DNA from: Parachlamydiales bacterium
Lineage (GTDB): Bacteria > Chlamydiota > Chlamydiia > Chlamydiales > JAFEGQ01
Assembly (NCBI GenBank): GCA_050250135.1
Contig: JBFWPF010000001.1
Coordinates: forward strand, 30,305 to 94,304
Length of the DNA: 64,000 nucleotides
Direction of reading: 5' to 3'
Shown: positions 12,640-63,952 of the stretch, piece after piece
Layout of the letters: every line of letters begins with the position of its first letter
Position numbering within the stretch: the first letter of the stretch is position 1
Program-made: the position numbers and the translations under genes
The notes under the pieces: generated by a model
Databases searched by the model: none
The model's input: only the letters and a program-made list of their open reading frames with translations
What the model was told of the DNA's origin: nothing

Positions 12640-14250
12640 TTAGAGGGCATTGAGTTGATCGAGCAGGACATCGCCCAAGGGATAGGGTTCACCCCCTGCC
12701 CCCCCTTTGCGGGCCCCGATCCGCTCGAGGAGTTTGTTCGCTAACACCTTGCCCAGCTGCACCCCCTCCTGATCAAACGAATTGATGTTCCAGATGTAGC
12801 CCTGGAAGTCGATCTTGTGCTCGTAAAAGGCCGCCAACATCCCAAGGGTATAGGGGTCGAGGCGGCGGGCGAGAAGGAGGCTGCTCGGACGCCCTCCCGG
12901 GAAATTCTTGTTCGGATTTGGGCTCTTTTTCCCCATCGCAAGGGCTAGGCACTGGGCAAACAGGTTGGCCAGGAGCTTCTCCTGCGAGGTCGTCCCATTT
13001 TGCTCGAGGTCGAGGCCGCACTGGGTCTCTCGAAAGCCGATAAACTCGAGGGGAACGACATCGGTTCCCTGGTGAATCATCTGGAAGAAGGAGTGCTGCG
13101 CATTCGTTGCCGGCTCCCCCCAGACGATAGGGCAGGTGTGGCAGTCGCTCTCCCTTCCCCACCTGTCGATCCGCTTCCCATTCGACTCCATATCGACCTG
13201 CTGGATGTGGGCCGCAAAGCGGATCAGCATCTGTGAGTAGGGGATAATGGCGAGGGTGGGGTGGCCTAGAAAATTCCGGTTCCAGATACCAAGTAGGGCA
13301 GCTAAGAGGGGAAGGTTCTCATGGATATCCCGCTTCAAGGCGATCCTATCCATCTGATTGGCCCCCCTCAATAGGTCTCGGTAGGCATCAAAACCGCAGG
13401 CAAAGGCGATGACGATCCCCCCGATCACGCTCGTCGCGCAGTAGCGCCCTCCGATCCAGTTCCAGATATAGAAACACTCGAGAAAGCGCCCCTTGTCATC
13501 CATCGGGCTCCCCTGACCGGTCGCGGCGATAAAGTACTGCTGGGGATCGAGCCCTGCCTCCCGGTAATGGTGGCGGATCAGATCCTCATTGGTTTTGGTC
13601 TCGAGGGTCCCACCCGATTTCGATACCGAGACGACGAGCGTCCGCTTGAGATCGAGCCCTCGAAGCGCTTGAGCCGCATCGTCGGGGTCGACATTGGAGA
13701 TAAAGTGGACCGTGCGGTTGACCTTGGCATACCCCTGCAGCCCGTAGTAGAGGGTCTTGGGGCCAAGCTCCGACCCGCCGATCCCGATGAAGAGCATATC
13801 GGTAAAGCGCCCCTCCTCATCGACCCGCTTCATGAAGGCCTCAAGCTTCTTAAACTCCCCCTTCGCCGCCTCGGTCGCCTCATGGGCCTTCGGTGCGGGG
13901 TTGGGGCTATCGAAAAAATCGCGCACCGCGGTGTGAAGAACGGGGCGCTCTTCCGACTCCTGCCCCTCGATAAAGTTCATCACCTCACCCGCCTGCTGAG
14001 CCTCCATCTTTTCAAACACCTTGGCCTCGAGAGCGAGTGCATAGAGCTCTTCGATCGTCTCCTCCGTCACCTGTTGGGCCCCATAGAGAAGGCGGAGCCC
14101 CCCACTAGAGGCGACCATCTTGCTCAGCCGCTCTGGGGTCATCTCCTTGGGATTCGTCAGATCGAAGGGGCTTTTGGCAAGCTTTTCGAGCTGGGCCGTC
14201 GCCTTCGCCTTGGAAAAATGGTAGTGCTTATCGAATAGAGAATGCCCCAT
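12640..14250 (-). CDS. pgi: glucose-6-phosphate isomerase
   Basis: Full-length PGI-like sequence (IGIGGSELGP, ESNGK). Its stop codon directly abuts the cyclase ATG. Confidence 0.9.
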   Translation of the reverse strand: MGHSLFDKHYHFSKAKATAQLEKLAKSPFDLTNPKEMTPERLSKMVASSGGLRLLYGAQQVTEETIEELYALALEAKVFEKMEAQQAGEVMNFIEGQESEERPVLHTAVRDFFDSPNPAPKAHEATEAAKGEFKKLEAFMKRVDEEGRFTDMLFIGIGGSELGPKTLYYGLQGYAKVNRTVHFISNVDPDDAAQALRGLDLKRTLVVSVSKSGGTLETKTNEDLIRHHYREAGLDPQQYFIAATGQGSPMDDKGRFLECFYIWNWIGGRYCATSVIGGIVIAFACGFDAYRDLLRGANQMDRIALKRDIHENLPLLAALLGIWNRNFLGHPTLAIIPYSQMLIRFAAHIQQVDMESNGKRIDRWGRESDCHTCPIVWGEPATNAQHSFFQMIHQGTDVVPLEFIGFRETQCGLDLEQNGTTSQEKLLANLFAQCLALAMGKKSPNPNKNFPGGRPSSLLLARRLDPYTLGMLAAFYEHKIDFQGYIWNINSFDQEGVQLGKVLANKLLERIGARKGGAGGEPYPLGDVLLDQLNAL

Positions 14251-14323
14251 GAAGACCCCTTTTCCCTCTTTGGTAACCCTTGAGGCCGTTTTACCGAAAG
14301 ACCCTTCGTACGTCCTTAGAAAG

Positions 14324-14509
14324 TTATGGCCGGCAGCCTCTTAGCGAATCGAGCCAGATTGTTGAAATCGCGACGAAGCCCATAGCCAAAGCGCTATAGG
14401 TGAGGAGCGAGATCAACAAGGCGGCCGATGCAGCAAGAGGATGGCGCCATAACTTTTTAACCCCTGATTGCGACCTATCGTCCAGAGGGCATCGACAGCT
14501 GGCGGCCAT
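14324..14509 (-). CDS. possible 61-aa hydrophobic small protein
   Basis: It begins at an ATG and contains a predicted TM stretch LAASAALLISLLTYSALAMGFVAISTIWL. GGAGG lies 11 nt upstream. The start codon and SD are embedded in the long hairpin at 14457-14622. No homology was recognised. Confidence 0.2.
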   Translation of the reverse strand: MAASCRCPLDDRSQSGVKKLWRHPLAASAALLISLLTYSALAMGFVAISTIWLDSLRGCRP

Positions 14510-14622
14510 CTAGTGTACATCCCTCCTCACCCAGGTCTAAAGACCTGGCCTCGTCACGATGTACACTATCTGACCACCATCTGCCACGCCCCCCGGACGA
14601 TAGGTCGCAATCAGGGGTTTAA
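14457..14622 (-). repeat. long imperfect palindrome / extended hairpin (element A)
   Basis: The outer 27-bp arms 14457-14483 and 14595-14622 are nearly perfect. Inside them are an 11-bp stem (14511-14521 / 14558-14568) and a 9x9 internal loop. The apex is the hairpin CCAGGTC-TAAA-GACCTGG. Five transition mismatches in the middle segment all become G-U pairs only on the minus strand. Confidence 0.7.
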
Positions 14623-15563
14623 GGGCGTACGACCCTTCCCATAAGATACCGCAACATTCCCCACAGCTGCGGAAGGACGAGGAGCGACCGGTGCCAGGTG
14701 TAAAGGGCTGAGTCCTCGTGGGAGAACCCCTCCTGCTTGGCAACCCGTTCGGTTTCGAAGATGCGGGGCCAGAGGAGGAGGATGGCGGCCGGCAAAAGGA
14801 AGAAAAGGGTAAGGGGGGTAACAAAGAGGCCCAAAAGGGCCAGGAGGGTGACGAAAAGGGCTCCGAGCCCCCTCCCGAGAATTTGCCGAACCAGCGTCCA
14901 GTCCCGGCCCCTCCAAAAGGCAGCCCCGACCCGATAGCCCGACTTGACTCCCTCCTTCCAGTACCCCTTCCAATTGGGAATGTGGATCTGCCGCTCCGCC
15001 ATCGGAAAATTGAGGTGGATCACCCGCCGCCCCGTTGCGGTGAGGCGAGCGTTGAACTCGAGCGCTCCTCCGTGGGGTAGCGACTCGTTGTACCCCCCCG
15101 TCTCCTCCAGCATCTCCCGCCTTAGCAGGGGCTCAAGGTCGAGAAGGCGCCCCTCTGCCAGGTCTGCTTTCGAGTCGAGATAGGCGATACGATGCCACCG
15201 GTTTTTATCGGGATTAGTGGGGACGATCTGCCCGCAGATGGCGGCCACCCCACCCTCAATTTCCTTGGTTGCCCGCTGGAACCACTCGGGGTTGATCCGG
15301 TCTCCCGATTCCAAGAATTGGACAAGGGGGGAGCTCCCTCGGTCCCACCCTACATTGCGGGCCTTGGCCCGATTTCCGGTCGCTTCGGAAATGAAGGTCA
15401 CACCGGGGAAGCGGGCCGAGGCCGCTTCGCTTCGCTCACCCCCTACCACAAAGAGATGAACCGCCCCTCGGTAGTAACCCGCTTCGCTAAGGCTCTGGAG
15501 GGTCTCCTCTAAGGGAGCGCCTCCCTCTCCAATGACCACACAATCGATATCACTCCCCGCCAT
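14619..15563 (-). CDS. family-2-like glycosyltransferase with C-terminal TM helices
   Basis: It shows an N-terminal GT-A-like pattern (DCVVIG, ARNVG, FLESGD) and a hydrophobic C-terminus. Confidence 0.6.
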   Translation of the reverse strand: MAGSDIDCVVIGEGGAPLEETLQSLSEAGYYRGAVHLFVVGGERSEAASARFPGVTFISEATGNRAKARNVGWDRGSSPLVQFLESGDRINPEWFQRATKEIEGGVAAICGQIVPTNPDKNRWHRIAYLDSKADLAEGRLLDLEPLLRREMLEETGGYNESLPHGGALEFNARLTATGRRVIHLNFPMAERQIHIPNWKGYWKEGVKSGYRVGAAFWRGRDWTLVRQILGRGLGALFVTLLALLGLFVTPLTLFFLLPAAILLLWPRIFETERVAKQEGFSHEDSALYTWHRSLLVLPQLWGMLRYLMGRVVRP

Positions 15564-35138: not shown

Positions 35139-36206
35139 ATGAAGCGTCTCCTCTCCCTCCTCCTTCTCTCAACTTCGGTAAGTGCCGGCTCCTTTCTCCC
35201 GCCCCCATGCCCCAATGCCCGCTACGGCGTCTTCGAAATCCAGTTCGACTTCCTCTATCTCCGCACGAGCGCCTCCGACTACCTCTACGCCATTGAGGAC
35301 AACCGCCCCTTTACCACCGCTGCCGAGGTCGCCTCCCGCCTCCCCGCCGGCCGCTCGGTCCGCCTCGATCCCGATGGGGCCCTCGGCTTTCGCGGCTCCC
35401 TCGGCTACCTCACCTGCCGCTGCTCCCAAGACCTTACCCTCGTCTACTCCACCCTCAGCGACGCCGAAAAGGAGGAGAAAACCCCCGAGGCTCTAGCGGG
35501 AGGGTTTTGGCCCCTCTTTGCCCACCCCCGGTACATGAATCAGACCCCCCTTTACTCCCCAAACCTCCTCGACACCGACCCCGCTCGAGTCCTTGCCGAC
35601 GGCTCATTCGACTGGGATGCCGTCGAACTCCAGCTCGGAAAGCGTACAAAAGTACGCCGCTGTGCCCAACTTCGAGGCTTTGCTTCCCTCTATTATGTCC
35701 ATCTCCGCAATGGGCTAGACACCGCGTACGAGGGGTTCATCGACCCCAGCCAGGATCGGTTCCTCGCAGCCCACGTCGATTTCGACGGGAAGACCTGGGG
35801 GGTTGGCCCCCGCATCGGCTTTGACCTTTCCCAGCGAATCTGGTGCGGCCTTGGGGTCTCCGCTCATTTCGCAGGCGGCCTCCTCGCCGGCCGAATGGAG
35901 AGCAAGCTCTTCGAAACGGTCGCCGAAACCCTCGGCGGCCTCATCCAATTTGAAGAGGAGCTTGCCGTACTCGATCACAGCCGCGCCATCCTCTTTCCGA
36001 ATATTTCTGGCGCACTAGCGGTGAACTACACCTATATCTGTGAGAATTTCTTCGCCTTTATTGCCGAGGTCGGCTATGAGTATACCTCTTACATCAATGT
36101 AGTTAGGGATCCGACCCGGTACAACGACCAGAGGGGAACGAGGACCCAAAACTGCGGGAACTTTGATCTGAACGGGATCTATGTTCGGCTAAAGGTTCGG
36201 ATGTGA
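35139..36206 (+). CDS. MOMP-like outer-membrane beta-barrel protein, paralog 1
   Basis: It has a signal peptide and the family motifs FEIQFDFLYLR, WGVGPRIGFD, YEYTSYIN and FDLNGIYVRLKVRM. It lacks the N-terminal Cys cluster. Confidence 0.7.
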   Translation: MKRLLSLLLLSTSVSAGSFLPPPCPNARYGVFEIQFDFLYLRTSASDYLYAIEDNRPFTTAAEVASRLPAGRSVRLDPDGALGFRGSLGYLTCRCSQDLTLVYSTLSDAEKEEKTPEALAGGFWPLFAHPRYMNQTPLYSPNLLDTDPARVLADGSFDWDAVELQLGKRTKVRRCAQLRGFASLYYVHLRNGLDTAYEGFIDPSQDRFLAAHVDFDGKTWGVGPRIGFDLSQRIWCGLGVSAHFAGGLLAGRMESKLFETVAETLGGLIQFEEELAVLDHSRAILFPNISGALAVNYTYICENFFAFIAEVGYEYTSYINVVRDPTRYNDQRGTRTQNCGNFDLNGIYVRLKVRM

Positions 36207-36385: not shown

Positions 36386-37642
36386 ATGAAACGATTCGTT
36401 CTATCGCTACTTGCCGCTGGTGTCAGCGCGGTAGCGGGTTTGCAGGCTAGCGGCTATGGGAGCTGCAATTCCTGTTGCGATCCTTGTTGCGACCCATGCC
36501 CCTCCTGGTGCTGTGGGAGCTTCGAGGTAGGGGGACAGTGGATCTACCTTAGACCCACTTCCTGTGACTTTGATTTCGTCATTAAAGATCCTCGGACGCT
36601 AGATACCAGCATCACCACAGGGGACAACAGCCCTGCCGACTGGGCAGGCTTCCTTCCCCAAGGGAAGAGCCACGGGATCGACCCTGACTATGAGTCGGGC
36701 TTCCGGGTATCGCTTGGCTACATTATGGACTGCAGCTGCTATGATGTACGCGTAGAGTACACCTACCTCCACCCCTGCGATCGCTCTAGGGTCTATGGAG
36801 ATGCGCTAACCAACGCGCTATGGCCTACCTACATGCACCCTCGGTACTCTCAGAATCTCGAGTTCGTGATGGGTAACAACACCCTAACCACCTTTGAGAC
36901 CCCGATTTTCAGCGGGACACCTAGCATTACCGATGCTGAGGCTGTTGATGCCTTTGCTTGGTCGAGCGTTAAGTTCGACTACGATGCGGTTGACCTCCAG
37001 TTCGGAAGCCGTGGCTACAAGAGCAACTGCCTCTGGCTGAGAACATACGCCGGTCTCCACTTCATGAACCTCGACCACCGCCACAAGGCCCACTATCGGG
37101 GCGTCTTCTGGGGAGTCGACAACTTCGATGACGGGGTGGTTGCTGAAGCTAACAACGTTGCTGGTTTCTTTGACACCTTCGTCAAGTGGACCAAAAACAC
37201 TTGGGGTATCGGACCCTTGTTCGGCCTTGACGCCCGTTATGAAGTCGCTTGCGGCTTCGGGATCGGCGGCCACTTTGGCGCCGCTATCCTAGCCGGTGAG
37301 ACCGACGGGAAAATGTTCGAGCATGACACCCGTAACTTCTCCGATGGTCAAGGGATCCTCAACCGAGGTGACTTCTCCGGCTTCGACATCGACGAGACCC
37401 TCGATGTTCGCCATGACCACAGAAACCTCCTCTTCCCCTACCTAAGGGCGAGTCTGGGGGTCAACTACCTCTGGTGCTGCGGCAACTGCCTCAAAGTGCT
37501 GGTGGAGGTGGGTTATGAGTTCAACAGCTACATCAACACGATCGGTCAGTTCCGATTCAATGATGAGCGGGGAACCGGCATGGCCAACTGCTATAGCTTC
37601 AACCTTGACGGCATCTACGTCAGCGTGAGAGCGACCATCTAA
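36386..37642 (+). CDS. Cys-rich MOMP-like outer-membrane protein, paralog 2
   Basis: GGAG lies upstream. It has a signal peptide and the motifs CCDPCCDPCPSWCCGSFEVGGQWIYLRP, WGIGPLFGLD and FNDERGTG..FNLDGIYVSVRATI. A terminator follows. Confidence 0.75.
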   Translation: MKRFVLSLLAAGVSAVAGLQASGYGSCNSCCDPCCDPCPSWCCGSFEVGGQWIYLRPTSCDFDFVIKDPRTLDTSITTGDNSPADWAGFLPQGKSHGIDPDYESGFRVSLGYIMDCSCYDVRVEYTYLHPCDRSRVYGDALTNALWPTYMHPRYSQNLEFVMGNNTLTTFETPIFSGTPSITDAEAVDAFAWSSVKFDYDAVDLQFGSRGYKSNCLWLRTYAGLHFMNLDHRHKAHYRGVFWGVDNFDDGVVAEANNVAGFFDTFVKWTKNTWGIGPLFGLDARYEVACGFGIGGHFGAAILAGETDGKMFEHDTRNFSDGQGILNRGDFSGFDIDETLDVRHDHRNLLFPYLRASLGVNYLWCCGNCLKVLVEVGYEFNSYINTIGQFRFNDERGTGMANCYSFNLDGIYVSVRATI

Positions 37643-37667
37643 TCGACTCACCCTAGTCGGTAGAGAG

Positions 37668-37699
37668 GGCGCCGGAGGGAAACCTCCGGCGCCTTTTTT
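37668..37699 (+). terminator. intrinsic terminator
   Basis: GGCGCCGGAGG-GAAA-CCTCCGGCGCC followed by T6. Confidence 0.85.
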
Positions 37700-37713
37700 G
37701 TTTTGGCTCCGAT

Positions 37714-38941: not shown

Positions 38942-39047
38942 CCCAGTAGCGTTCTCCCATATACAAAAAAAAACTCCCTCTTCTAGAGTGAGGCCATAGC
39001 CTGCGGCATGTGGGCTATAGCTTCCTCAACTTTTGGAGTGTACGAAA

Positions 39048-40310
39048 ATGAAACGTTTTGTGTTTGGGCTTGCTTTGATGGGTGTAGGCACCCTGGCAAG
39101 TCTCCAGGCAAGCAGCTACAATAACTGTGGCTCTTGCTGCAACCCCTGCTGCGACCCCTGCCCCTCATGGTGCTGTGGGAGCTTCGAGGTAGGGGGACAG
39201 TGGATCTACCTTAGACCCACCTCCTGTGACTTTGATTTCGTCATTAAAGACCCTCGGACGCTAGATACCAGCGTAATCGTGGACTCTGTCACCCCCACCA
39301 ACTGGCTCGGCTTCCTTCCCCAAGGGAAGAGCCACGGGATCGACCCTGACTATGAGTCGGGCTTCCGGGTATCGCTCGGCTACATCATGGACTGCAGCTG
39401 CTATGATGTACGCGTAGAGTACACCTATCTCCACCCCTGTGACCGCTCAAGGGTCTATGGAGATGCCCTGACCAATGGGCTGTGGCCAACCTACATGCAC
39501 CCTCGGTATTCTCAGAATCTCGAGTTTGTAACGGTTGACGGCAACAATACCCTAACCACCTTTGAGACCCCGATTTTCAGCGGGACACCTAGCATTACCG
39601 ATGCTGAGGCTGTTGATGCCTTTGCTTGGTCGAGCGTTAAGTTCGACTACGATGCAGTTGACCTCCAGTTCGGAAGCCGTGGCTATAAGAGCAACTGCCT
39701 CTGGCTGAGAACCTATGCGGGTCTCCACTTCATGAACCTCGACCACCGCCACAAGGCCCACTATCGTGGCGTCTTCTGGGGAGTCGACAACTTCGATGAC
39801 GGGGACACGACCGATGCCTTCAACGTTGCTGGCCTCTTTGACACCTTCGTCAAGTGGACCAAAAACACTTGGGGTATCGGACCCTTGTTCGGCCTTGACG
39901 CCCGTTATGAAGTCGCTTGCGGCTTCGGGATCGGCGGCCACTTTGGCGCCGCTATCCTAGCCGGTGAGACCGACGGGAAAATGTTCGAGCATGACACCCG
40001 TAACTTCTCCGATGGCCAAGGGATCCTCAACCGAGGTGACTTCTCCGGCTTTGACATCGACGAGACCCTCGATGTTCGCCATGACCACAGAAACCTCCTC
40101 TTCCCCTACCTAAGGGCGAGTCTGGGGGTCAACTACCTCTGGTGCTGTGGCGACTGCCTCAAAGTGCTGGTGGAGGTGGGTTATGAGTTCAACAGCTACA
40201 TCAACACGATCGGCCAGTTCCGATTCAATGATGAGCGGGGAACCGGCATGGCCAACTGCTATAGCTTCAACCTTGACGGCATCTACGTCAGCGTGAGAGC
40301 GACCATCTAA
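39048..40310 (+). CDS. Cys-rich MOMP-like outer-membrane protein, paralog 4 (near-duplicate of paralog 2)
   Basis: The ATG at 39048 follows a GGAG (the track's TTG is at 39033). The protein is almost identical to 36386-37642 outside four short patches. Confidence 0.75.
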   Translation: MKRFVFGLALMGVGTLASLQASSYNNCGSCCNPCCDPCPSWCCGSFEVGGQWIYLRPTSCDFDFVIKDPRTLDTSVIVDSVTPTNWLGFLPQGKSHGIDPDYESGFRVSLGYIMDCSCYDVRVEYTYLHPCDRSRVYGDALTNGLWPTYMHPRYSQNLEFVTVDGNNTLTTFETPIFSGTPSITDAEAVDAFAWSSVKFDYDAVDLQFGSRGYKSNCLWLRTYAGLHFMNLDHRHKAHYRGVFWGVDNFDDGDTTDAFNVAGLFDTFVKWTKNTWGIGPLFGLDARYEVACGFGIGGHFGAAILAGETDGKMFEHDTRNFSDGQGILNRGDFSGFDIDETLDVRHDHRNLLFPYLRASLGVNYLWCCGDCLKVLVEVGYEFNSYINTIGQFRFNDERGTGMANCYSFNLDGIYVSVRATI

Positions 40311-40335
40311 TCGACTCACCCGAGTCGGTAGAGAG

Positions 40336-40369
40336 GGCGCCGGAGGGAGACCTCCGGCGCCTTTTTTTT
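40336..40369 (+). terminator. intrinsic terminator
   Basis: GGCGCCGGAGG-GAGA-CCTCCGGCGCC followed by T8. It duplicates the terminator at 37668. Confidence 0.85.
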
Positions 40370-40489
40370 GCCCCCTACCTATACAAAAATCGGCTCCCTC
40401 TCTACGGTGCAAAATTAACTTATATTAGTTCCCTCTGAACCCAAGGCCGGAGACAAGAGGGCGGGTGCTAAAAAGAATAGGAGAGGCGG

Positions 40490-56882: not shown

Positions 56883-57626
56883 ATGAATCGAATTGAGAAA
56901 CCCGAAATAACCCTCCCCTTCCTCTTCGTAGGGGTGGTGAGCGCTGCCTGCCTACTGCCGGCTATCCGCCGCTTCCGGGAGGCGCATGTTCCGTTCCTGT
57001 CGCTCCAGCGGGGGGTCGCTCCCCTCCACCTCTCCTACCTCGGTGTGCTAGGGGCCGGGGGAGCACTCGGCCTAACCCACTGGAAGCGGATCGCCTATGA
57101 GGGGTCGCTCCTCTACACCGACTACTCAATCGCGGCACAGGGAAACCGATGGTACGACGAGATAAAGGGGAGTAACATCATCCTAAGCGCCATTCCCCTT
57201 AATGATAGGGGTCATCTCGAGGAACTCAAAGAGAAAGGGGTAGTCGCGGTCTTGGCCTGCGTTGAGGATTTTGAGCTTCTGCCGGGGTGGCAACATACCC
57301 CCGTTACGGCTGAGCAGTGGCGCGAGGCGGGTATCGAGTGGAAGCAGATTCATGCCCAGGACTATCTCCCTATGGCACAGAATCAGGTAAACGAGGCGAT
57401 GACTTTCCTGGAGGAATGGACCCCGAAAGGGAAGGTGGTTGTCCACTGTAAGGCTGGACGAGGGCGAAGTGCTACGGTGGTCACCGCTTACCAGATGAAA
57501 AAAAATAAACAGGACCGGACGACAGCTCTAAAGGATGTTCAGAAGTACCGGACTCAGGTTAACCTCAACGCCCTTCAGAAAACGGCGCTAACGAAGTTCG
57601 AGAAATCACTCTCCACCGAAGGCTAA
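56883..57626 (+). CDS. membrane-anchored dual-specificity (Cys-based) protein phosphatase
   Basis: The active-site motif is [15 protein letters not shown] (HCx5R). The N-terminus has two hydrophobic helices. Confidence 0.65.
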
Positions 57627-61793: not shown

Positions 61794-63004
61794 CCGGCCA
61801 TCCCCAACTGCTTAGCGAGCTGAATCCCCATCACCCCAAGGGCAACCAGGATCACCACCACCAGCATCGGCCTCCCTCCACGGGCTGCGTGGAAGGTCTC
61901 CTTACCCTCTCGGTAGCGGAGCTGCCACACCATCAGGGACGGCATGATCCCGAACAAAACGACCGCCCCATAGGCCCCGGCCATCTGGAGGGCCTTCACA
62001 AAGATCCCCGGGTTATAGAGAGCCGCCATATAGGGGGGAACGAGCGCCAGTAGGGTCAGCATCCCCCTCCACAGCTGGGTGCGGGGGGTCTTAAACCCGT
62101 CGGCCAAGAAGTCGACCAGGCTCAGCGCTTGTCCCAGCACCGAGGTCACGATCGCAAAGAAGGCAAAGAGCTCCCCTGCAAGGGTGATCCACCCCTTACC
62201 GAGCACCGCCGCTAGCGCCTTGGGAGCAATCTCCCCCTCATCGTTTCCCCCGAGGAAAAAGATCTCCGGTGGAACGATTCCCAGGACCACCGCTTCCCAG
62301 ACCAGATAGATGGCGAGCGGAATCAGGCTTCCGATAATCACCACTTGCCGCATATGGCGGGCATCCCCCTCCAGGTAGTGGGTAAGGGTGGGGAGCATGT
62401 TGTGGAAGCCAAAGGCGATCACCAGCACCGGCATCGCAAAGGGGGCCTTTTCCCAGTAGAGGTGCCTGAGCAGCTCTCCCCGGATCTCAGGAAAACCAAA
62501 AGCAACCAGCGCCACATAGGAGACCACAAGGCCGACCATCAGGTAGCGGTTGACATAGTCACACGCTGCCGTCCCGATAAAGACGAGCAGACCCAAGATC
62601 GCCGTCACGATCAGGCTTCCCGCCCATACCGGTGGGGGCTGCCCCCCGTAATAGGTGACAAACTCAGCCACCAACTGCCCGCTCCCCGCGGTGTAGGCGG
62701 TCAGGATCAGGTAGAAGAGGTAGCAGAAGAGAAACCAGCTAAGGCCCTTCCCTACCACACCCAGCGTCCGCCCCGCCATTGAGACGATCGAGACATTGGG
62801 GCCCATCCAGAGGTTAACCTCGAGGAGCAAAAGCGCCGTCGTCGTCATAAAGGCCCAGGCCAACAGGAAGGCCAACACCGCCGGCACAAAACCGGCCATC
62901 GCGGTTGCCGTGGGCATCGCGAGCATCCCTGCCCCGATGCAACTTCCTGCAATCAGAAGGATTGCCCCTAATGTTCGTGTCCGTATCTGCTTAGAATTCA
63001 ACAT
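61790..63004 (-). CDS. tyrP: aromatic amino acid permease (HAAAP family), copy 1
   Basis: Motif RTLGAILLIAGSCIGAGMLAMP. I prefer the ATG at 63004 with AGAGG 6 nt upstream. The track's GTG is at 63028. Confidence 0.8.
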   Translation of the reverse strand: MLNSKQIRTRTLGAILLIAGSCIGAGMLAMPTATAMAGFVPAVLAFLLAWAFMTTTALLLLEVNLWMGPNVSIVSMAGRTLGVVGKGLSWFLFCYLFYLILTAYTAGSGQLVAEFVTYYGGQPPPVWAGSLIVTAILGLLVFIGTAACDYVNRYLMVGLVVSYVALVAFGFPEIRGELLRHLYWEKAPFAMPVLVIAFGFHNMLPTLTHYLEGDARHMRQVVIIGSLIPLAIYLVWEAVVLGIVPPEIFFLGGNDEGEIAPKALAAVLGKGWITLAGELFAFFAIVTSVLGQALSLVDFLADGFKTPRTQLWRGMLTLLALVPPYMAALYNPGIFVKALQMAGAYGAVVLFGIMPSLMVWQLRYREGKETFHAARGGRPMLVVVILVALGVMGIQLAKQLGMAG

Positions 63005-63015
63005 GGATAACCTCT

Positions 63016-63203
63016 GATAAGTAGACACCCGACTTGCCAGTTACTAATGCCTTTTATCCGAGGGGAGATCGGTTTCCAGGGCTGCGTCTGAGCCGCAGGA
63101 CAGGGCCAAAGCGCCCTGTTCAAGGCGAAGAGACAGCCCTGGGAGCCAATATCCGCCGGAGAAAAGGCGTTAGTAGCTGGCAAGTCGGGTGTAGACTACC
63201 GCC
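63016..63203. repeat. long imperfect palindrome / extended hairpin (element B)
   Basis: The outer helix has about 35 bp, pairing 63025-63059 with 63158-63192. A second tier is CCAGGGCTG/CAGCCCTGG. The apical hairpins are CTGCG-N7-CGCAG and CAGGGC-CAAAGC-GCCCTG. It abuts the tyrP SD. Confidence 0.7.
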
Positions 63204-63247: not shown

Positions 63248-63952
63248 TCAAAGGTCTTGAGTGGTTACGCTTAGGGTAAGAGATTCCTCTTTTTGGGACA
63301 AGGTTTGAGAGGGATCCTCATACCTCCAATTCATCTTCAGGGGGTGGGGGTCATCCCAATGGTAGACCCCCCACAAGATCGACACCTGGAGATGGGGGCA
63401 CTGCCGATAGAGTGCTGGGAGGCGATCCTCCAGCGAGCACTCCACGACCTCCAACCGCTTCAGCTGCTTAAGCGACGGGACGAGCACAACCAGAGCCTCG
63501 ACATCGGGTTTCGAGTAGCTCACTACAAGCCGCGTGAGATTGGGCGACCCCTCTCCCACCGCCCTAAAGAGCTCCGCATCCAACCCTTTGCACCGCCGCA
63601 TCACCAGCTCTTTAAGGTTTTTGCACCCCTTTAGCTTCTTGATGAAGGGGGCATTTAGGCATTGGGTACTCAGATCGAGCACCTTCAAATTGGGCCAGCC
63701 TAGCAGCTCCTCACGAAGGGGGTCCTCAAGGGGCGATCTCCTCACATTGCACCGGTTCACCCAGAAGTCGGGAATAGTCCGGAAATAGCGGCAGACCCGT
63801 TGGAGGGTGAGGTAGGTCCCTTCATCGGTATAGGAGACGATCTGCCACCACAGCTCTGAAGGGAGGGGCTCAGGCGGGCTTATATCCCATTCTAGCTTAA
63901 GCTTCTTGGTCTCCATAAGAGGATTATACCCCTTCTTGCACTCTCCGTCCAC
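63248..63952 (-). CDS. eukaryote-like F-box / leucine-rich-repeat protein
   Basis: The F-box-like motif is LPSELWWQIVSYTDEGTYLTLQRVCRYFRTI. LRRs follow (LKVLDLS, CKNLKELVMRRCKGL, SPNLTRLVVS, LKQLKRLEVVEC). Confidence 0.6.
   Translation of the reverse strand: MDGECKKGYNPLMETKKLKLEWDISPPEPLPSELWWQIVSYTDEGTYLTLQRVCRYFRTIPDFWVNRCNVRRSPLEDPLREELLGWPNLKVLDLSTQCLNAPFIKKLKGCKNLKELVMRRCKGLDAELFRAVGEGSPNLTRLVVSYSKPDVEALVVLVPSLKQLKRLEVVECSLEDRLPALYRQCPHLQVSILWGVYHWDDPHPLKMNWRYEDPSQTLSQKEESLTLSVTTQDL

Follow-up and report, generated by a model that had tools for sequence, protein, structure and literature searches.

A palindromic and probably mobile 157-bp element nested within an older palindrome at a gene end of an environmental chlamydia

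A 64,000-nt stretch of DNA from a metagenome-assembled genome (MAG) of a Parachlamydiales bacterium (GCA_050250135.1, 94.9-kb contig JBFWPF010000001.1, positions 30,305 to 94,304; locus tags AB7F31_; 58.5% G+C), hereafter the window, carries a very long hairpin between the genes for a family-2 glycosyltransferase (GT) and glucose-6-phosphate isomerase (PGI). [quoted passage not shown] Element A has a size below ~300 bp, terminal repeats, target duplications and no transposase, it occurs in multiple copies, and empty sites were found. It belongs to an established type of mobile element and represents an undescribed family of that type in environmental Chlamydiota; literature searches returned no description of such palindromic elements in Chlamydiae. 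The initial annotation, made from the sequence alone, had described a hairpin that starts at a stop codon and sequesters the Shine-Dalgarno (SD) sequence and start codon of a small hydrophobic open reading frame (ORF). It had suggested a type I toxin mRNA, a regulated leader peptide or a large terminator. The main features of the locus are:

14619..15563, minus strand: GT gene (Pfam PF00535), with C-terminus and stop codon reshaped by insertion of an older palindrome, element X, according to the comparison with relative L002
14618..14622, no strand: upstream copy of the target-site duplication TTAAA, including the GT stop codon TAA (14619-14621)
14461..14617, minus strand: core of element A, read from folds, copies and covariation as a non-autonomous mobile palindrome of 157 bp that has the ends CCCCTGATTGCG...CGCAATCAGGGG
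14456..14460, no strand: downstream copy of TTAAA, from the sequence and its reconstruction
12640..14250, minus strand: PGI gene (Pfam PF00342), 368 nt downstream of GT, compared with ~50 nt in relatives L002 and L012

Anatomy and fold of element A

An inverted repeat was indeed present at 14456-14622, and it begins in the TTAAA that holds the GT stop codon TAA (14621-14619). On the minus strand, 14440-14640 folded at −141.2 kcal/mol, against −69.9 ± 4.4 kcal/mol for shuffled sequences (z = −16.1); the plus strand of the same interval gave −107.3 kcal/mol. For the core alone (14461-14617), the values were −129.2 kcal/mol on the minus strand and −96.3 kcal/mol on the plus strand. The helices and loops agreed with those described before. 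In the outer helix, 37 pairs follow one another without interruption on the minus strand, and 25 of these are Watson-Crick on both strands; the 11-bp helix is UAGUGUACAUC/GAUGUACACUA, the 9 × 9 internal loop is GUGACGAGG/GUGAGGAGG, and the apical stem of 7 bp (CCAGGUC/GACCUGG) is closed by the loop UUUA. Comparison of one arm with the reverse complement of the other yielded 60 Watson-Crick positions and eight transitions, and the transition mismatches form G·U pairs exclusively on the minus strand (eight versus none on the plus strand), as had been noticed. The GGAGG and the AUG at 14509 both lie within the paired 3' arm, again in agreement with the initial annotation.

Further copies and target sites

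One of the six reading frames of A is open (53 residues), and its translation was searched by phmmer against 1.84 billion representative proteins. Copies were found inside a hypothetical protein (MGE3954317.1, AB7F31_03845; 89% identity) and inside an ankyrin-repeat protein (MGE3954660.1, P0010; 83% identity). Both are encoded on other contigs of the same MAG, an assignment that follows from the AB7F31_ tags carried by the window's own proteins. The translation also matched P0011 from a JGI/Logan sample (72%), and a later search added P0017 from a JGI sample. The contigs of P0011 and P0017 yielded three DNA copies (L119 4991-5147, L121 3169-3325 and L121 960-1118), so that two members of the family share one contig of 4.6 kb, L121. 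Identity to A across the element is 87% for the L119 copy, and both L121 copies align to A over the full length with conserved ends and apex; the flanks are unrelated in all three. No Pfam match, transposase or coding capacity was found in A.

The copies are flanked by 5-bp duplications, namely TTAAA in the window, TTTAA in L119, TTTGA in L121b, and CTAGA/TCTAG with an offset of 1 nt in L121a. Their terminal inverted repeats, CCCCTGATTG(C/T)GAC(C/T)T and its complement, are near-invariant among the four DNA copies; columns 1-16 pair with columns 144-159 and contain two variable positions. We presume that the CC ends combined with a 5-bp A/T-rich duplication resemble the IS1380 family of insertion sequences. 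The stop codon of efp lies in the CTAGA duplication of L121a, and the TAGTTA duplication of a related element, L107, includes the stop codon of a UDP-glucose dehydrogenase gene. In this genome of 58% G+C, the T/A-rich 5-mers that the element prefers as targets often coincide with stop codons. Given this target preference, a hairpin that starts at a stop codon reflects the choice of target rather than a function.

The core and its duplication together measure 157 + 5 = 162 nt, or 54 codons, and therefore preserve the reading frame. P0011 has an in-frame insert of 54 residues that is absent from its orthologue P0016 (AB7F31_06945, from the window's MAG; 52% identity). The copy at L121 3169-3325 is nested as well, inside a palindrome at 3042-3376 (173 nt, 37-nt arms).

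Nested insertion and empty sites

The remainder of the interval (~14308-14455) folds as a second long hairpin, X, and the whole block of ~330 nt formed by A and X is missing from the relatives that were compared (L002 and L012). Its parts are:

14631..14638, no strand: direct repeat GAAGGGTC upstream of X, a probable target duplication of X, from the sequence and its reconstruction
14623..14630, plus strand: far end of X, reading GTACGCCC on the minus strand, cut off from the rest of X by A and supplying the last GT codons, Arg-Pro
14308..14455, plus strand: main body of X, an older palindromic element of 161 bp after removal of A, with its central module on the plus strand
14300..14307, no strand: direct repeat GAAGGGTC downstream of X, from the sequence and its reconstruction

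The core of A, CCCCTG...CAGGGG (157 nt), has an exact TTAAA at both sides. When A and one TTAAA were removed in silico, the outer stem of X lengthened from 11 bp to GCCCTTAAAAAGTTATGGC/GCCATAACTTTCTAAGGAC (17/19), extendable by GTAC on each side (19-23 bp), and the plus strand of X then folded end to end at −81.4 kcal/mol. Further removal of X with one copy of its duplication left a GT terminus and a spacer that run colinear with L002 (GCA_021772495.1; PGI in the same 90% cluster), where the GT stop codon is followed by 48 nt and PGI. The spacer between GT and PGI is ~50 nt in L012, the closest GTDB representative (68% PGI identity, GT upstream).

These reconstructions show that A inserted at TTAAA and duplicated that site, that this target sat within the terminal repeat of the older, related palindromic element X, and that X had entered GT a few codons ahead of its stop codon and gave the protein its new end ...V-R-P-stop. 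Since A sits in the terminal repeat of X, and removal of both restores a spacer like that of L002, the insertion of X came first and that of A second. We also considered GTAC as the duplication made by X; the 8-bp GAAGGGTC just outside is more parsimonious, while the CGTACG palindrome leaves some ambiguity.

Covariation and strand polarity

Covariation was analysed among the four DNA copies of A (window, L119, L121a and L121b). They share 64 pairs, and 98% of the cells are paired. At 22 of the pairs both sides had changed, compared with 6.6 ± 2.0 in column shuffles (none of 500 reached the observed number) and at most 5 in slid controls. A single divergent copy, L121a, accounts for most of the double-sided changes. 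Conservation among the four copies covers the ends (~17 nt) and the apex, and the middle helices vary yet remain paired. Transition mismatches favoured the strand with GACGA...GAGGAG in each of the copies (8:0, 10:1, 8:0 and 3:0), and several G·U pairs occur at identical columns in three or four of them. These results show selection on the A family for a single-stranded fold of the strand that reads GACGA...GAGGAG.

The initial annotation had taken the G·U pairs on the strand of the flanking genes as support for an RNA-level structure. The selected single-strand fold and its polarity stand, whereas the tie to the strand of the flanking genes does not. Five of the six A-family copies (L119, L121a, L121b and the two embedded in proteins) are antisense to their host genes, and antisense copies keep the same G·U pairs. 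Hence, the match with the strand of GT and PGI is an accident of the orientation of the window copy. The G·U polarity, the GA-rich loops and the compensatory changes are thereby shown to be inherited family traits, not traits selected at this locus.

A central module in palindromes with different ends

Five long palindromic elements occur within the 64 kb of this otherwise compact genome. In addition to A and X, these are elements B, C and D, and in A, X and C a common central module was recognised with a covariance model, R1:

14504..14575, minus strand: central module of A, with a CAGAU/AGAU tandem-G·A loop, a 12-nt helix, GACGA facing GAGGA(G) and a stem-loop at the apex; R1 72.5 bits, E = 1.6e-19
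14352-14426, plus strand: R1 match in X, 63 bits
42897-43058, plus strand: element C, a 162-nt hairpin between two plus-strand genes, −103 kcal/mol on the plus and −80 kcal/mol on the minus strand; R1 72 bits
53824-53965, plus strand: element D, a 142-nt intergenic hairpin, −81 versus −66 kcal/mol, with ends GTAAGTG.../...TGCTTAC that match those of C
63020-63197, plus strand: element B, a 178-nt hairpin, −132 kcal/mol on the plus and −113 kcal/mol on the minus strand, located between two genes of the minus strand and antisense to them

A on the minus strand and X and C on the plus strand have a common architecture, with an outer arm that measures 43-48 nt, a CAGAU whose GA is unpaired opposite AGAU, and a helix of 11-12 nt. 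In the internal loop, GACGA faces GAGGA(G) as G·A/A·G, C-G, G·A/A·G; the sequence of the apical stem-loop differs by element. Element C ends in GTAAGTG.../...TGCTTAC, and its flanks GGGGAATC and GGACAATC agree at 6/8 positions; its GTAA ends and 8-bp duplication presumably resemble those of the IS66 family. Element B lies upstream of the start codon at 63004 and stops 16 nt short of it; its ends ACCCGACTTGCC... are bordered by the direct repeat GTAGAC, and B and X have the apical sequence GCCAAAGCGC in common. For element D, a clear target duplication was not found. A single uniform duplication length for all families was considered and dropped, as the lengths are 5 bp for A, 6 bp for L107, L108 and B, and 8 bp for X and C.

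A pattern built from A and X was used to scan metagenome contigs. Coincidences in G+C-rich coding sequence accounted for 30 of the 34 matches, and the module was recovered at a hairpin apex on four contigs (L095, L118, L107 and L108). The hairpins of L095 and L118 folded at −94 and −88 kcal/mol, respectively, compared with −57 and −64 kcal/mol on the opposite strand, and the elements of L107 and L108 have X-related ends and 6-bp flanking repeats. The R1 scores were 63-87 bits on these four contigs and on A, X and C, and 37-46 bits on the other copies of A. A further element of 165 nt, at L119 3022-3186, scored 20.5 bits and has an apex, GACGAAGCCCATAGC, identical to that of X. Besides A, X and C, R1 detected nothing in the window, and a scan of 22 chlamydial PGI loci with it added no member. 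The module pattern had no matches in viral contigs, and blastn of the block against plasmids gave no match. Bare GACGA-N-GAGGAG is common in coding DNA (16 matches in the window) and is uninformative alone. Counted over independent families, the ratio of transitions is 26:8 in favour of the motif strand, with X (2:5) as the exception.

The L118 element is located 5' of a fused glyQS gene, which we take to be a chlamydial trait. The L095 contig also contains a 115-nt palindrome of CAGATAA-like short repeats (946-1060), between a gene for a RecD-like helicase and a 289-aa gene. Hairpins of 130-170 nt were likewise seen at other loci from Chlamydiota MAGs (L018 9359-9530, L022 7891-8048, L026 2-129 and L023 6112-6243). 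Two of these, L018 and L022, share the internal-loop words CAAGGAGG in the 5' arm and CCGACGCAG in the 3' arm despite unrelated stems, and probably represent another structure-conserved family.

Alternative explanations

An assembly artefact, such as a palindromic chimera, is hardly credible as the origin of the block. Logan contigs assembled independently from the same run break off at 14601 and resume near 14365, but these breaks are to be expected in a multi-copy repeat. The same contigs confirm both outer junctions, one joining the GT stop codon to the first 17 nt of A and the other joining the distal half of X to PGI. Moreover, the hairpin is imperfect, with eight G·U pairs and structured loops, unlike fold-back artefacts, and homologous copies exist in other assemblies. 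The proposal that the hairpin is a 5' structure masking the SD sequence and start codon of a small hydrophobic protein, either a type I toxin or a regulated leader peptide, depends on the following ORF:

14324..14509, minus strand: 61-aa ORF, judged not to be a gene, running from the 3' arm of A through the duplication into X and ending at a TAA in the terminal repeat of X

This ORF with its AUG at 14509 does exist on translation, and the GGAGG and the AUG are within the paired arm. It also has one hydrophobic stretch, as the predicted transmembrane helix implied, yet this stretch is encoded by X. The ORF is thus a chimera of two separate insertions, an accidental read-through of the 3' arm of A, the duplication and X, and its standing as a gene was lost on several further counts. 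It had no homologue in 5.8 billion protein clusters, its exact sequence was not in the protein collection, and it is unannotated. Its G+C contents at the three codon positions were 0.50/0.57/0.60, compared with 0.63/0.42/0.72 for genes. Its codon log-odds score was −0.15 per codon, compared with 0.59 ± 0.22 for genes, and only 0.2% of real in-frame windows scored lower. In all three of the other DNA copies the AUG CUAGAUGGCC is replaced by CCAGAUUGCC or AAAGAUCGG while the hairpin is kept, which is the outcome that the initial annotation had named as speaking against its proposal. No ORF was conserved after GAGGAG in any family member examined, and the whole block is missing from relatives. 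We therefore consider the toxin or leader-peptide function very improbable, and a false small-protein candidate is removed from this locus.

A role of the inserted hairpin in its operon deserves more weight and is compatible with a mobile origin. The ancestral spacer of 50 nt suggests that GT and PGI were co-transcribed, and a scan of 14100-14800 predicted no sigma-70-like promoter and no intrinsic terminator, so read-through transcripts would include the hairpin. In its sense orientation, A would give GT a 3' end with a stem of ~69 pairs that immediately follows the stop codon, and would place the stronger of its two folds (−129 kcal/mol; up to −141 kcal/mol with flanks) on the strand of the GT-PGI transcript. 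There it could act as a barrier to 3' exonucleases, as a target of double-strand-specific RNases, or as a partial block to transcription that uncouples PGI from GT. Stabilisation of mRNA, RNase cleavage and transcription blocks have been reported for bacterial MITEs (PMC3733652, PMC3184786), which stabilise or destabilise flanking mRNAs (PMC3733652). A might have been co-opted as a large terminator or attenuator, as a 3' stabiliser of the rsbW-rsbV-ppa-GT transcript, or as a processing site that uncouples PGI. The terminator suggested by the initial annotation does not hold in its canonical form, as the sequence 3' of the hairpin, UUAAAAAG, is not a U-tract and the terminators of this genome combine a short G+C stem with a T-run, as seen, for instance, behind the genes whose ends are near 37642 and 40310. 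Furthermore, the orientation is not conserved, with five of the six family copies antisense to the host gene, and the insertion is lineage-specific, two relatives managing with a spacer of 50 nt. An insertion that is near-neutral is equally possible, and we regard co-option as possible but the less probable outcome.

The central module offers a different perspective, in which the module itself is the functional unit, a structured RNA or single-stranded DNA motif that, for example, a host protein or a transposition protein binds, and the hairpins are its vehicles. The same module with loops at a fixed distance of 11-12 nt occurs in A, X and C, it recurs with different ends and covarying stems in L095, L118, L107, L108 and L119 3022-3186, and its strand is favoured 26:8 across independent families. 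However, X is an exception (2:5), only ~10 members are known, the motif words by themselves are common in coding DNA, and the similarity is explicable by common descent from related parent elements. We consider this idea doubtful, somewhat more so than co-option. In an equally tentative form, a module of ~75 nt might be needed by several chlamydial palindromic families with different ends and duplication lengths, for instance as what a mobilisation enzyme that reads structure, or an RNA-binding protein of the host, recognises. If so, structure would define the class of module-bearing elements, as with attC sites or REPINs, in place of the ends that define ordinary MITEs.

Several points also weigh against our own reading of A as a non-autonomous mobile element. 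An autonomous element with the ends of A was not found, and an arm 20-mer was absent from GTDB representatives and JGI contigs, collections that lack this lineage; the JGI set misses L119, which has the exact 20-mer. The L119 contig corresponds to Ga0247389_10016360, and its exact 20-mer makes negatives in the JGI collection weak. Only three copies were demonstrated in this MAG, two of them as translations. The duplication of X is ambiguous in length (4-8 bp), because the ends GTAC/CGTACG are palindromic themselves, and related elements have repeats of 5, 6 and 8 bp. In addition, a cut-and-paste transposase that reads the ends needs no pairing over the whole length, no compensatory changes and no strand polarity, and whatever effect A may have on the expression of GT and PGI is pure inference.

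Relation to known elements

MITEs have terminal inverted repeats and flanking direct repeats, lack a transposase, form long stem-loops in RNA, and are often located beside genes and transcribed (PMC3184786, PMC3733652). The Correia/NEMIS elements of Neisseria, ERIC/YPAL of enterobacteria, RUP and Nezha resemble A in being ~150 bp, with terminal inverted repeats, short duplications, no transposase, multiple copies, a location at gene ends and stable stem-loops. In contrast to these bacterial MITEs, A has no sequence similarity to described families, no Rfam match and no cognate insertion sequence that we could find. It is also paired over its whole length with compensatory changes and polarity, and its GA-rich module is shared despite different ends, the reverse of the usual conserved ends and variable core. 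This GA-rich, strand-polar core common to elements with different ends stands out as the only unusual feature, as it is the ends, not the cores, that MITE families normally have in common.

RPEs are palindromic repeats that lie in frame inside protein genes of Rickettsia (PMC3733652). Element A shares with them the palindrome of ~100-150 bp, the obligate intracellular lineage and the in-frame insertion into genes, as in the ankyrin-repeat protein, the hypothetical protein and P0011. It differs in its clear 5-bp duplications and in its origin from another phylum, Chlamydiota, which makes sequence homology to RPEs unlikely. The window copy is intergenic, so the in-frame insertion is a property of other copies of A. 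With REPINs and the REP-RAYT system, A shares the form of a short mobile repeat that folds into a hairpin. For REPINs the single-strand fold is important in mobility, and such a dependence would be one explanation for the pairing and polarity of A. REPINs are shorter, carry GTAG/CGTC tags, use HUH Y1 transposases and make no target duplication (PMC3733652, PMC3116915), whereas A has duplications and no RAYT gene was seen here.

The resemblance to type I toxin-antitoxin mRNAs lies in a structured RNA over the SD sequence and start of a small hydrophobic ORF, and ends there, as the ORF is unconserved, unannotated and non-coding-like. Similarly, A shares with intrinsic terminators a G+C-rich hairpin right after a stop codon, but has 69 pairs instead of ~5-15 and no U-tract. 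Searches of Rfam 15 used gathering as well as E-value thresholds and covered the window, this locus and related loci; the only matches were sub-threshold ones to hairpins like miRNA precursors. An integron attC site was rejected, since the ends CCCCTG/CAGGGG are by eye not R''/R' core sites of the form RYYYAAC...GTTRRRY and the neighbours are housekeeping genes. Likewise, identities as a REPIN, 6S RNA, signal recognition particle RNA, bridge RNA or retron were ruled out on anatomy and the lack of an Rfam match.

These elements represent an undescribed family of mobile palindromes in environmental Chlamydiota that remodel gene ends, nest, and insert in frame, as RPEs do in Rickettsia. They break short-read assemblies and seed spurious ORFs, and their recognition improves the annotation of MAGs. 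A lead to how such elements are recognised, or to what they do in RNA, comes from their covarying, strand-polar fold together with the GA-rich core found across families.

Genomic context

On the minus strand, the genes are arranged in the order mutL, M24 peptidase, RsbW-like kinase, STAS protein, inorganic pyrophosphatase, GT, the 368-nt gap, PGI and adenylate cyclase. The protein accessions of GT and PGI are consecutive (MGE3953600 and MGE3953599), which implies that the depositors' annotation called no gene between them.

Elsewhere in the window, the genes at 56883-57626, 63248-63952 and 35139-36206 stood out; names given in the source include a dual-specificity protein phosphatase, an F-box-like protein and an Lpg1974-family outer-membrane pore. 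Such a eukaryote-like effector repertoire is typical for amoeba-associated chlamydiae. Furthermore, the genes at 36386-37642 and 39033-40310, and probably also the neighbouring ORFs of 395-425 aa, look like tandem paralogues with canonical terminators. The gene 3' ends at 37640-37700 and 40300-40370 have ~70 nt in common, reading ...CGACCATCTAATCGACTCACCC.AGTCGGTAGAGAGGGCGCCGGAGGGA.ACCTCCGGCGCCTTTTTT.

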